This document shows, piece by piece, positions 9,003 through 13,960 of a stretch of DNA of 16,731 nucleotides. A model generated the notes under the pieces. That model had not been told where the DNA came from. It searched no databases and worked only from the letters and a program-made list of their open reading frames with translations. The position numbers were made by a program, and so were the translations under genes. The stretch's first letter is position 1. Every line of letters begins with the position of its first letter. The stretch comes from a virus (taxonomy: Duplodnaviria; Heunggongvirae; Uroviricota; Caudoviricetes): the IMG/VR virus record IMGVR_UViG_2576861133_000011; one strand, 5' to 3'.

Positions 9003-9251
9003 AGCTAAAGTATTAGCTTAAAAATAAAGTATACCTAGCGAATATAATCTAGGACTAGTTGTAACGCCCGAAATGATTGATTGCGTGAGCAACAAAATTT
9101 TTCTTCCATTGTTGTGAAATCATTTAGCCATAAAGTTTATGCAGAGATTTTATTTTATTTTTGAGTTGATTTTTTTGTAACGAGCTGTATATTTCGCGCC
9201 TCTTGTCATACCAGTTATTTTTTTCATTATATTCATAACGTTGATTGAACT
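9003..9251 (+). promoter_or_regulatory. AT-rich intergenic region upstream of the adhesin gene, with a putative sigma70 promoter
   Basis: Very AT-rich with T-tracts. TTGATT (9166-9171) then 16 nt then TATATT (9188-9193) is a possible promoter. No strong Shine-Dalgarno before the adhesin ATG. Confidence 0.3.
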
Positions 9252-12200
9252 ATGACCACTGTGAATAAAAAGTTAAAAAAAACTGCATCTGGCGCGATTA
9301 CATGGTCGGTAATTGTTACCCAGATATTATCTCCAGTTTCTCTTTCTTTGATCCCAGCAAACAGTTTTGCATCATCTGGTAATAAAGATGTTACGCAAAT
9401 TTATGCCAGCGATGAGCATGCAAATAAAGTGGCCTCATTTGCAGCAAGTGCAGGTCAGAGCCTGGCGAATAATAATGCAAGTAGTTTTGCTGTAAATACT
9501 TTATCAACTCAGGCGACAAAAGAGGTCGTCGACTGGTTGCAACAATATGGCAATGCGCGCATCAAGCTTAATGTCGATGATTCTTTTTCCTTGAAGGATT
9601 CATCATTCGACTTTTTATATCCATGGCTGGATACTCAGGATTATGTGTTATTCAGTCAGACATCACTACATCGTACTGATGACCGAAATCAGACCAATAT
9701 TGGTTTGGGGATTCGTCATTTCACTCCTGATAACGCAATGTTGGGTGCGAATGTTTTCTATGATTACGATTTAAGTCGTAGTCACTCTCGTGCAGGTTTT
9801 GGGGTTGAGTACTGGAGGGATTATTTCAGGCTTGGTGTAAATACCTATTTTGGTCTATCTGACTGGAAGAACAGTCGTGATATTGATGATTATCTGGAAA
9901 GACCTGCAAATGGCTGGGATTTTTCTGCTGAAGGATGGCTACCTGCTTATCCGCAATTAGGGGCATCTATTCAGTTTGAAAAATATTATGGTAAAAATGT
10001 CGGGTTATTTGGAAGCGATAACCTGCAGGAAAACCCTTACGCAGTTACTGGGGGAATTTCTTATACACCAGTTCCTCTGATTAAGTTTTCTGCACAGCAT
10101 AAGCAAGGACAGAGCAACACTCACGATACAACCTTTGGTGTTGAGTTTAATTATCGCCCGGGCGTTTCCTTGGCTGAACAGCTTAGCAGCGATAATGTTG
10201 CAGTTATGCGAGAAGTCCAGAACCGGCGTTATGATTTTGTTGAACGAAATAACAACATTGTTCTGGAGTACAAGAAGAAGCATGCACTGAAAATCAGTTT
10301 GCCAGAGTCTGTTCAGGGGGAGGGGGAATCAATCATCCCTGTAACACTGACAATCAACAATGCTAGTGGTGGTATCAAGTCTGTACAGTGGAATGATAGT
10401 GCATTCACTGCGGCTGGCGGCAAGATCAGTGGAAATGGCACATCATGGCAGATCACTTTACCGGCTTATAAAAGCGAAGGTGTAAATTCGTGGAATGTTG
10501 GAGCCACAGTACAGGATAACAGAGGCAACGTTTCCAACTATGCCGTGATGAATATTAGCGTTACTGATAGTGGTGTCTCGACGGCTGATTCGTCTTTTAC
10601 ACTGGATGGAGATTCGTCGCCGACAATCTCTGCTGATAGCCAATCCACTTATCCGATAGTATTAAGCCTGAAAGATAGTAACGGTAAGGCATTAACCGGA
10701 CTGGCTGATGACATTGAAATGTCAGTGGAATTTACAGCAGATAGCAATAGTGCTCGACAGCGTGAAACGGTAACTGCTCCGTCATTAGGCGCGGTAGAGG
10801 AAATCTCTGCTGGGGTATATCGCTCTGTTCTGACTGCTGGTTCGCAGGCTGGTACGGTACGTGTAACTGCAAAAGTTCAGGGAAAAACCTTTACTCTGAA
10901 TATTAAGCAGGCAGCCATTACTGATAGTGATGTATCGACAGCTGATTCGTCTTTTACACTGGATGGAGATTCGTCGCCGACGATCTCTGCTGATAGCCAA
11001 TCCACTTATCCGATAGTATTAAGCCTGAAAGATAGTAACGGTAAGGCATTAACCGGACTGGCTGATGACATAACTGATAGTGATGTATCGACAGCTGATT
11101 CGTCTTTTACACTGGATGGAGATTCGTCGCCGACGATCTCTGCTGATAGCCAATCCACTTATCCGATAGTATTAAGCCTGAAAGATAGTAACGGTAAGGC
11201 ATTAACCGGACTGGCTGATGACATTGAAATGTCAGTGGAATTTACAGCAGATAGCAATAGTGCTCGACAGCGTGAAACGGTAACTGCTCCGTCATTAGGC
11301 GCGGTAGAGGAAATCTCTGCTGGTGTATATCGCTCTGTTCTGGCTGCTGGTTCGCAGGCTGGTACGGTACGTGTAACTGCAAAAGTTCAGGGAAAAACCT
11401 TTACTCTGAATATTAAGCAGGCAGCCATTACTGATAGTGATGTATCGACAGCTGATTCGTCTTTTACACTGGATGGAGATTCGTCGCCGACGATCTCTGC
11501 TGATAGCCAATCCACTTATCCGATAGTATTAAGCCTGAAAGATAGTAACGGTAAGGCATTAACCGGACTGGCTGATGACATTGAAATGTCAGTGGAATTT
11601 ACAGCAGATAGCAATAGTGCTCGACAGCGTGAAACGGTAACTGCTCCGTCATTAGGCGCGGTAGAGGAAATCTCTGCTGGAACTGATAGTGATGTATCGA
11701 CAGCTGATTCGTCTTTTACACTGGATGGAGATTCGTCGCCGACGATCTCTGCTGATAGCCAATCCACTTATCCGATAGTATTAAGCCTGAAAGATAGTAA
11801 CGGTAAGGCATTAACCGGACTGGCTGATGACATTGAAATGTCAGTGGAATTTACAGCAGATAGCAATAGTGCTCGACAGCGTGAAACGGTAACTGCTCCG
11901 TCATTAGGCGCGGTAGAGGAAATCTCTGCTGGGGTATATCGCTCTGTTCTGGCTGCTGGTTCGCAGGCTGGTACGGTACGTGTAACTGCAAAAGTTCAGG
12001 GAAAAACATTTACTCTCAGTATTAAGCAAACAGCAACAACAGAACCTGATTCTGAGGTCAGTGCTGTTTTAACCGCTGCACCAGCAGAACAGGTAGTTGG
12101 TTACAATATCAATCTACAACTGGCAGTGAAGGATTCACAAGGAAATGCAATCACTGGTGATAACACTCTGAGCTTTTATGCTCTTAACCAGGCAGAAGGA

Positions 12201-13922: not shown

Positions 13923-13933
13923 CAAAATTGAAT

Positions 13934-13960
13934 GGGGAGGGCTTAGCCCTCCCTCTTTTT
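13934..13960 (+). terminator. Rho-independent terminator of the adhesin gene
   Basis: GGGAGGGC (13935-13942), loop TTA, GCCCTCCC (13946-13953), then TCTTTTT, 12 nt after the stop codon. Confidence 0.8.

Follow-up and report, generated by a model that had tools for sequence, protein, structure and literature searches.

What does the gene of a large surface protein do in a lambda-like prophage, directly behind the replication gene P, and where have the genes gone that are expected there? The question arises from a virus record (Caudoviricetes, IMGVR_UViG_2576861133_000011), of which the whole stretch of 16,731 nucleotides, here called the window, was analysed. The reading frame in question codes for 1556 amino acids. 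Quite likely, it is the gene of an FdeC-like adhesin that is carried as prophage cargo, and its length is an artefact; this rating covers the whole explanation, including the rod, the contact made by its tip and the mode of expression outlined below.

The gene product

The reading frame and its parts are the following (positions in the window, strand in brackets).

9252-13922 (+): ORF of the inverse-autotransporter adhesin, 1556 aa as it stands in the window; start codon as in the RefSeq annotation of identical DNA in E. coli Ecol_AZ146 and EC958
9252-9371 (+): probable Sec signal peptide, residues 1-40, with cleavage at ...ANSFA/SS (translation read by eye: basic N-terminus, hydrophobic core, A-x-A-like site)
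9420-10253 (+): 12-stranded IAT beta-barrel translocator, residues 57-334 (full-length profile PF11924; 4E1T, 4E1S)
10275-10574 (+): first barrel-proximal Ig-like domain, D00-like, residues 342-441 (intimin chain 6TQD, E 1.6e-9)
10563-12038 (+): near-identical Ig-domain repeats of 357 bp (119 aa), three true units and two partial re-starts (repeat-family search; TRF; alignment with the 1421-aa and 1183-aa alleles)
12039-13919 (+): distal passenger, non-identical Big_1/Invasin_D3 Ig-like domains and a lineage-restricted tip of about 115-125 aa (Pfam)

Judged by its domains, the ORF encodes an FdeC-like inverse autotransporter, i.e., a protein of type Ve secretion. An N-terminal IAT barrel lies ahead of the passenger, and the C-terminal passenger is built from tandem bacterial Ig-like domains. 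The barrel profile PF11924 covers residues 57-334 with an E value of 6.5e-101, profile positions 3-279 of 279 being used (Pfam). Compared with solved structures, the barrel matches invasin (4E1T, E 1e-73, more precisely 1.1e-73) and intimin (4E1S, E 8e-63). In the 1556-residue product Pfam further recognises seven stretches of Invasin_D3 and five of Big_1. A barrel plus Big_1 domains is what the earlier note, made from the letters alone, had expected an HMM search to find. Its intimin/invasin-family gene of 1556 codons fared well in two respects, the uninterrupted ORF on the + strand and the family; the length is unreliable, as will be seen. Residues 1-40 have the look of a long signal peptide, again judged by eye from the translation: KKLKK is followed by a hydrophobic stretch and then by SFA/SS.

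The far end of the passenger has few relatives. Pfam found neither a lectin nor an Intimin_C match in the distal passenger and tip. Among 1.84 billion cluster representatives, the tip domain has just two relatives, both diverged and one of them from Escherichia albertii; a search for a deeper alignment returned only fragments of the same protein. Single-sequence AlphaFold2 predicts two beta-sandwich domains for residues 1230-1440, mostly at moderate confidence (pLDDT roughly 60-90). In the model of the last 327 residues, however, the tip has a pLDDT near 30, so that fold matches would be meaningless. We infer from family membership that the product, be it of 1556 or 1421 residues, would function as an adhesin.

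The prophage and its cargo slot

The surroundings of the gene comprise the following features.

8301-9002 (+): replication gene P, directly upstream, left border of the cargo slot (Phage_lambda_P, E 3.4e-61, Pfam)
13934-13954 (both strands): G+C-rich hairpin terminator common to the adhesin gene (+) and the convergent esterase gene (−)
13959-13982 (−): last 7 codons and stop of a lipoprotein alpha/beta-hydrolase (esterase) gene, cut by ISEc23 (comparison with EC958)
13975-13982: 8-bp target site of ISEc23, GGGTTTTG (duplication observed in Ecol_AZ146)
13983-14228 (+): extra copy of the first 246 nt of ISEc23 (IS66 family), 100% identical to 14230-14475
14230-16731 (+): ISEc23 (Pfam HTH_Tnp_1, TnpB_IS66, DDE_Tnp_IS66; RefSeq 'IS66-like element ISEc23 family transposase')
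14315-14740 (+): tnpA of ISEc23
14737-15087 (+): tnpB of ISEc23
15118-16731 (+): tnpC of ISEc23

The earlier note had the adhesin gene sitting where the nin, Q and lysis genes should be. Complete genomes reveal a different arrangement. There the order is P-adhesin-esterase-ylcH-ybcN-ninE-ybcO-rusA-ylcG-Q-holin/lysozyme/Rz-iss-terminase-portal-capsid-tail-sitABCD-partial icd, so that the gene occupies a cargo slot, and an intact nin/Q/lysis region lies downstream of it. The window shows only IS DNA after the adhesin gene because ISEc23 interrupts the esterase gene at its 3' end, and the nin/Q/lysis region falls outside because the IS copy fills the remainder; the last base of the window is the end of the tnpC stop codon. 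In EC958 the esterase gene is intact and ends with ...QNPNANL*. The element itself has the hallmarks of the IS66 family, tnpA-tnpB-tnpC, inverted repeats and an 8-bp duplication, its right end lying beyond the window and being taken from Ecol_AZ146. In that strain it measures 2532 bp, has the ends GTAAGCGTAAAC and GTAAGCGTCAAC and is flanked by the duplication GGGTTTTG. The same insertion site is used in 69 complete genomes.

Could the prophage simply have been truncated after P, the adhesin gene being part of a neighbouring chromosomal adhesin island? The earlier note had raised this reading, and nothing phage-like follows P within the window, only adhesin and insertion-sequence DNA. Yet in EC958, Ecol_AZ146, THO-015 and TUM14697 DNA identical or near-identical to the window runs on through nin, Q and the lysis genes into those for packaging, and where complete genomes match the window at 100% identity, the genes from ylcH to the tail come right after the esterase. 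In every inspected locus, moreover, the adhesin gene is flanked by P and ylcH/ybcN, be it at icd or at thrW. Its distribution, 560 of 5426 complete E. coli genomes, among them that of EC958, the ST131 reference strain, also argues against an island of this kind. Truncation is thus refuted for the closest genomes and most improbable overall. The low count likewise led us to reject a conserved core gene, and the late genes found beyond the esterase in complete genomes disqualify the adhesin as a marker of the prophage end. A search for late genes and attachment sites puts the adhesin inside the prophage in complete genomes, and EC958 has its tail genes and attR downstream of the module. From the identical complete genomes, the genes that follow in the source genome would be those for nin functions, Q, lysis and structural proteins.

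The other reading of the earlier note, a moron or horizontally acquired cargo, is supported. The gene is housed by a lambda-like prophage at icd that is otherwise complete, lies between the backbone genes P and ylcH-ybcN, has its own terminator and is replaced in a related prophage. Homology with DLP12 of K-12 (peaD remnant, 94.7%) stops about 10 bp before the stop codon of P and resumes 85 bp before ylcH; in the same slot DLP12 carries renD-emrE-ybcK-ybcL-ybcM. The base composition is unlike that of the backbone: the adhesin gene (9252-13922) has 44.1% GC and 35.3% GC3, as against 49.2% GC in the stretch 3013-9002 and a GC3 of 60% for P and 49-61% across exo, bet, gam, cI, O and P. The module is also found in a decayed prophage at thrW, which makes two attachment sites, icd and thrW. 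At the level of DNA, the genome comparison shows a two-gene cargo module, adhesin and convergent lipoprotein esterase with one hairpin between them, in a lambda-like prophage at icd of E. coli ST131 and relatives.

The gene is already known to the catalogues. PHROGs lists the adhesin as phrog_7803 and phrog_16344 and the esterase as phrog_3341, and EC958_1349 is mentioned as a 'prophage-associated invasin-like protein' (PMC8541385). By description and position, the latter is probably WP_022645049.1, the protein encoded in both Ecol_AZ146 and EC958. The 50,697 deposited phage genomes contained no inverse autotransporter and no DNA match. At the protein level they yielded two matches only, one to a contig of a Salmonella chromosome and one to a fragment of 2.1 kb, and carriage by sequenced phages therefore cannot be claimed, despite the PHROGs families. 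Our literature search found no functional study of the prophage adhesin gene; the vaccine work on SinH (PMC9937491) concerns another protein.

The length of the adhesin

Once three overlaps are collapsed, the window does not differ from Ecol_AZ146 at a single position in 16,079 nt. The sole differences are three joints, all revealed by comparison with that strain.

11072 (no strand): joint 1, a single A, restart 152 nt back at the first base of a repeat unit, 51 aa added
11681 (no strand): joint 2, a single A, restart 251 nt back at the first base of a repeat unit, 84 aa added
14229 (no strand): joint 3, a single A, restart at the first base of ISEc23

The joints are strangely alike. Their back-jumps measure 152, 251 and 246 nt, and each of them contains one extra A, which is untemplated, both parental sequences having T or G. 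The restart point is always the first base of a repeat, twice of an Ig unit and once of the IS terminus. The Ig repeats in the window are spaced by 357, 153, 357 and 252 bp (repeat-family search). The homologues in the database are 1183, 1302, 1421 or 1540 residues long and thus differ in steps of 119; none has 1556, and no record of the exact product was found. Joint 1 occurs neither in the 5426 complete E. coli genomes nor in metagenome contigs or GTDB contigs. The normal boundary of the repeat unit, in contrast, was found. Draft assemblies contain many 'partial' versions of 449-534 aa, some of which end near the start of the repeat array.

Since natural alleles step by 119 aa and the joints share the same anatomy, the length of 1556 aa is probably artefactual, and the real allele is probably that of 1421 aa, WP_022645049.1. 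We propose that three overlaps between sequence pieces were left unmerged, each with one A and each in repeated DNA. This would have inflated the gene by 135 aa and duplicated the left end of the IS.

Alternatively, the allele is genuine, which means that two in-frame duplications of partial domains and a nested insertion of ISEc23 arose in the source strain. Adhesin repeat arrays do vary in length, and elements of the IS66 family can insert into one another. Also, both intragenic duplications (153 and 252 bp) keep the frame, as selected duplications would; by chance this is expected in about 1 of 9 cases. But three independent rare events would be needed, in DNA without a point difference from Ecol_AZ146 over 16 kb, and all of them would have had to add an untemplated A and to resume precisely at the edge of a repeat. 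No extra A is expected from a true nested IS insertion. Natural length variation, further, comes in whole 119-aa units only, whereas the added pieces of 51 and 84 aa are incomplete domains, and the joint occurs in none of the searched collections. A genuine 1556-residue allele is, in consequence, unlikely.

Expression, role and relatives

The adhesin gene is preceded by the following feature.

9003-9251 (+): AT-rich spacer of 249 bp, 30.1% GC (computed), presumed promoter or regulatory region of the adhesin gene

The earlier note had estimated this AT-rich region at about 250 bp, and the 200-nt stretches of lowest GC content in the window indeed lie in or around it. Sigma-70-like matches were seen on the + strand at 9166-9193 and 9203-9230, their consensus being weak; promoter-like matches are not enriched, 7 having been found and 11 expected in shuffled sequences. 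There is no credible small ORF in 9003-9251, and an Rfam scan of the whole window gave no match. The strong terminator that the earlier note ascribed to the gene is real enough: its hairpin consists of 9 pairs, G-C in 7 cases, with a T run behind it, and reaches -18.1 kcal/mol (z -2.65). This T run shares bases with the esterase gene's stop codon.

In the lysogen, transcription would start from a promoter in the spacer and might be silenced by H-NS. The latter is a guess from the 30% GC of the spacer and from the analogy to FdeC, the nearest paralogue, which is regulated by H-NS according to the title of Easton et al. 2014 (as referenced in PMC6714894). Upon induction, transcripts could also arrive by read-through of the early rightward transcript, because O, P and the adhesin gene all point the same way. 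The stretch from kil to cI showed no ORF for an N-like antiterminator, which makes read-through of the shared terminator on induction uncertain.

The protein would go through Sec, and its 12-stranded barrel would insert into the outer membrane. The passenger with its approximately ten Ig-like domains would then thread outward into a rod. From strain to strain, this rod would differ in whole 119-aa steps by recombination of the near-identical 357-bp repeats. The divergent tip domain would be the part that touches the surface of a host, another cell or a substratum.

Might the protein primarily serve the phage, as a shield or decoy against superinfecting phages or as a factor of cell-cell aggregation between lysogens? 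Other lambdoid cargo in similar positions modifies the surface of the cell. The gene is prophage cargo too, it is paired with that of a second envelope protein, and bor/iss is present in the same prophage. Against this stands the fact that the nearest characterised relatives, FdeC, intimin and invasin, are adhesins. Also, IatB, IatC and IatD sit at the surface and promote biofilm formation when overexpressed (PMC6714894). A main role in the service of the phage is distinctly improbable.

There is also a bolder view. The gene would then represent an eighth class of inverse autotransporters in E. coli that had been overlooked, mobilised by a phage, with an Escherichia-confined tip, enriched in the pandemic lineage ST131, coupled in its expression to the state of the prophage and measurably involved in colonisation of the gut or urinary tract. 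As a package, this is rather doubtful. The coupling would mean silence in the lysogen and read-through from the early rightward promoter on induction. As a separate observation, the census of 2019 lacks the gene, even though its own strains carry it.

About one in ten complete E. coli genomes encodes this large surface protein with a rod of variable length; as such, it is plausible as a colonisation factor or as a vaccine antigen. The gap is modest and practical, since protein class, prophage and cargo slot alike are familiar. Some caution is due: the striking size is best explained by unmerged overlaps in repeats, and the 'missing' late region lies past both the insertion sequence and the last base of the window.

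How does the gene compare with what has been described? WP_022645049.1 of EC958 is apparently this very gene: the accession is shared with Ecol_AZ146, to which the window is 100% identical once the overlaps are collapsed, and the prophage, the icd site and the neighbours agree. The two versions differ in the 135 additional residues of the window ORF and in the esterase gene, which is cut by ISEc23 in the window and intact in EC958. Among lambdoid morons such as bor/iss, lom and the emrE-ybcK-ybcL-ybcM of DLP12, the module shares foreign composition between backbone genes and a terminator of its own. At 4.3 kb, however, the adhesin gene is much larger than a classic moron and is paired with a convergent gene.

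With intimin and Yersinia invasin the protein shares the barrel fold family (4E1S, 4E1T) and Ig domains of the D00 and D3 types. Unlike these, it gave no Pfam match for LysM, Intimin_C or a C-type lectin-like receptor-binding cap. An intimin orthologue was rejected, the NCBIfam model intimin_all scoring 331.6 bits with a cut-off of 1400. The equivalogs IatC (385/2400), SinH/IatB (318/999) and YchO/IatA (269/508) were discarded for the same reason, and Ilp (312/1125), YrIlm (306/750) and Cronobacter Inv (284/710) also stayed far below their cut-offs. IatA (YchO), IatB (SinH), IatC, IatD and YeeJ have the secretion class and the species in common with the prophage adhesin. In the E. coli census table of Goh et al. 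2019, EC958 and the other ST131 strains are credited with fdeC, iatA and iatB only, and the prophage adhesin therefore stands outside the named groups.

The closest likeness is to FdeC/EaeH. The two proteins, 1421 and 1418 aa long, are colinear over 1351 aa, with a conserved barrel and first Ig domain and then a run of Big_1 domains; the barrel-proximal Ig-like domain belongs to the best-conserved part of the alignment (residues ~97-440). The fdeC barrel is also the next-best DNA match to the adhesin gene, with 66-67% identity, in a bimodal distribution of at least 95% versus 60-80%. Overall, however, the proteins are only 32% identical, the alignment shows no near-identical 119-aa repeats in FdeC, and the tip domains are unrelated. 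Their genes differ in location: fdeC is chromosomal and sits beside ykgM/ecp, in the locus ykgM ... rclC, while the present gene is prophage cargo. In view of the identity of 32% and the different locus, we rejected orthology with FdeC and regard the prophage adhesin as its paralogue.

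The prophage and its cargo slot

By ORF calling and Pfam, the window holds the left portion of a lambda-like prophage.

Features of the window (strand where assigned)
1-1143, minus strand: integrase, followed by excisionase
3013-3693, minus strand: exo
3690-4475, minus strand: bet
4481-4777, minus strand: gam
5655-6410, minus strand: S24/HTH repressor
6449-6679: YdaS/Cro-like gene
6749-7288: YdaT-like gene
7285-8304: O
8301-9002: P
9003-9251: spacer of 249 bp between P and the adhesin ORF
9252-13922, plus strand: adhesin ORF, followed by a hairpin terminator
13959-13982, minus strand: last seven codons and stop of an esterase gene, followed by ISEc23
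3' of the hairpin terminator up to the window end: IS66-family genes

The immunity region belongs to the Rac-like YdaS/YdaT type. The actual start codon of the repressor is uncertain; its longest ORF comprises 251 aa, the RefSeq product on identical DNA (L003, 8461-9150) 229 aa.

An earlier note had read the adhesin gene as replacing the nin/Q/lysis region and had considered, as one of two options, that it marks the end of a truncated prophage. Neither is the case. EC958, the ST131 reference strain, carries the same prophage, integrated at icd, and there the late region lies beyond the point that corresponds to ISEc23 and the window end.

Gene order of the EC958 prophage
Early: int, xis, exo, bet, gam, kil, repressor, cro-like, ydaT-like, O, P
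Cargo after P: 1421-aa adhesin, then convergent alpha/beta hydrolase
After the hydrolase: ylcH, ybcN, ninE, ybcO, rusA, ylcG, Q
Lysis: holin, lysozyme, Rz, iss
Late: terminase, portal, protease, decoration protein, capsid, tail genes
Right end: sitABCD, partial icd

TUM14697 shares this order up to the capsid genes, with a one-repeat adhesin allele of 1183 aa. Homology to DLP12 of K-12 breaks off some 10 bp short of the 3' end of P (peaD remnant in DLP12) and returns 85 bp upstream of ylcH; in between, DLP12 has renD-emrE-ylcJ-ybcK-ybcL-ybcM. Since DLP12 holds other genes there, the P-to-ylcH interval is a recognised cargo slot, and the note's other option, a moron, was the right one. There is additional cargo in the EC958 prophage: sitABCD (iron/manganese uptake), which adjoins the partial icd copy directly inside the right attachment site, and iss, a bor homologue, 3' of the lysis genes (sitABCD/icd and iss: EC958 loci L010, 9152-12601 and 14515-14682, and L011, 25580-25873).

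The constant partner of the adhesin gene is the convergent esterase gene. Where intact (L011, 20419-21462, minus strand), it encodes a 347-aa alpha/beta hydrolase with Pfam BD-FAE and Abhydrolase_3 matches, assigned to phrog_3341 ('esterase'). Its N-terminus is lipoprotein-like (...MSVGSC), so the module appears to encode two envelope proteins. ISEc23 has entered this gene in Ecol_AZ146 and THO-015; in the former, the 2532-bp element lies between the two copies of a duplication, GGGTTTTG, 24 nt from the esterase 3' end. The window therefore shows an esterase remnant and then the IS; its adhesin/ISEc23 junction is common to 69 complete genomes. Strain 2015C-4136CT1 (L001, 19994-27955) has the module P-adhesin-esterase-ylcH-ybcN at the thrW tRNA site, within a decayed prophage; its adhesin gene has a frameshift and is interrupted by an IS66-family copy other than that of the window. 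In further strains the adhesin gene contains an IS3 insertion. The gene thus is often inactivated.

The length of the adhesin ORF

The ORF of 1556 aa reported in the earlier note is indeed uninterrupted. Its length, however, is probably an artefact, because it falls outside the series of known alleles and contains odd joints. Database alleles comprise 1183, 1302, 1421 and 1540 aa, i.e., 1183 plus whole units of 119 aa; no record matches the 1556-aa product exactly. By BLAST against the complete Ecol_AZ146 genome, the window falls into four colinear pieces without a single mismatch (1-11071, 11073-11680, 11682-14228 and 14230-16731). At each joint (11072, 11681 and 14229) stands one extra A, present in neither parental sequence at that position, and the following piece restarts 152, 251 and 246 nt back in the reference, respectively; no overlap exceeds 251 nt. 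Once the overlaps and the extra A's are taken out, the window equals 16,079 nt of Ecol_AZ146. Pieces two and three start at ACTGATAGTG, the first base where the first Ig-repeat unit and later units become alike, and piece four at GTAAGCG, where ISEc23 begins. The segments added at joints 1 and 2 correspond to 51 and 84 aa of the 119-aa domain.

That the three joints are built alike and all lie in repeats, with otherwise no difference over 16 kb, makes it very probable that overlapping sequence pieces were concatenated without being merged. A genuine long allele could be argued from the reading frame, which is kept across both intragenic joints. Joint 1, however, was not found in 5426 complete E. 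coli genomes, metagenome contigs or GTDB contigs, and the normal repeat-unit boundary is seen in four metagenome contigs. 'Partial' proteins of 449-534 aa come from many draft genomes, some of these proteins ending near the start of the repeat array. If concatenation is the cause, the true allele would be the 1421-aa WP_022645049.1.

Distribution and previous records

Of 5426 complete genomes, 560 contain the spacer plus barrel region at 95% identity or more, almost always as a single copy. In a sensitive search identity is bimodal: the same 560 genomes reach at least 95%, all others 60-80%, and the hits sampled from the lower band are the fdeC barrel (66-67%). None of the deposited phage genomes carries the gene.

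The gene has been annotated and catalogued before and is mentioned in the literature, its function being predicted from the family. PHROGs lists it under phrog_7803 and phrog_16344 (unknown function). EC958_1349, apparently the same gene, was reported to differ between two patient isolates by an insertion, a 2-bp deletion and a 4-bp substitution (PMC8541385, Table 2); as the 357-bp repeats are near-identical, these 'mutations' could be mapping artefacts. In the 2019 census of inverse autotransporters in E. coli, EC958, JJ1886 and other ST131 strains are credited with no more than fdeC, iatA and iatB (PMC6714894, Data Set S1), which places the gene outside the named groups: the PF11924-positive adhesin of EC958 (L011, 16117-20382) is absent from its entries.

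Family, regulation and relatives of the adhesin

The gene, its family, its AT-rich leader and its terminator are real. The spacer suspected to be AT-rich has 30.1% GC over its 249 bp, and the GC minima of the window lie in and around it. The adhesin gene has 44.1% GC (GC3 35%) versus 49.2% in region 3013-9002 (GC3 of P, 60%). The strong terminator is a G-C-rich hairpin at 13934-13954 (9 pairs, 7 of them G-C; -18 kcal/mol) with a T run; it is common to the adhesin and esterase genes. An N-antiterminator-like ORF was not found between the kil-like and repressor genes (5144-5654). Early rightward transcription would have to pass this shared terminator to reach Q.

As to regulation, there are only hints: the low GC of the spacer, two weak sigma-70-like matches therein, not enriched over shuffled sequence, and H-NS control of FdeC, according to the title of a paper (Easton et al. 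2014) referenced in PMC6714894. The orientation is that of O and P; read-through into the adhesin gene upon induction is therefore possible.

The predicted intimin/invasin membership proved correct. Pfam detects the inverse-autotransporter barrel in full length at residues 57-334 (PF11924, E 6.5e-101), followed by seven Invasin_D3 and five Big_1 stretches, but neither a LysM domain nor a lectin-type cap. The barrel matches the solved ones of invasin and intimin, and about 100 residues behind it match the intimin D00 domain. The NCBIfam equivalog cut-offs for IatC, intimin, SinH, Ilp, YrIlm, Inv and YchO are not reached. For the last ~125 aa, 1.84 billion cluster representatives contain only two diverged relatives, one being a set of Escherichia albertii fragments.

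Judged by its family, the protein would be exported by Sec and its barrel inserted into the outer membrane. Some ten Ig-like domains make up the passenger, which would then pass through or beside the barrel and extend as a rod. Recombination among the 357-bp repeats, mutually about 98-99% identical, may shift the rod's reach in steps of 119 aa, and the lineage-specific tip would provide binding specificity. Upon overexpression, the relatives IatB, IatC and IatD are surface-located and promote biofilm formation (PMC6714894). FdeC is colinear with the 1421-aa allele at 32% identity over 1351 residues, and conservation is highest in the barrel and the first Ig domain.
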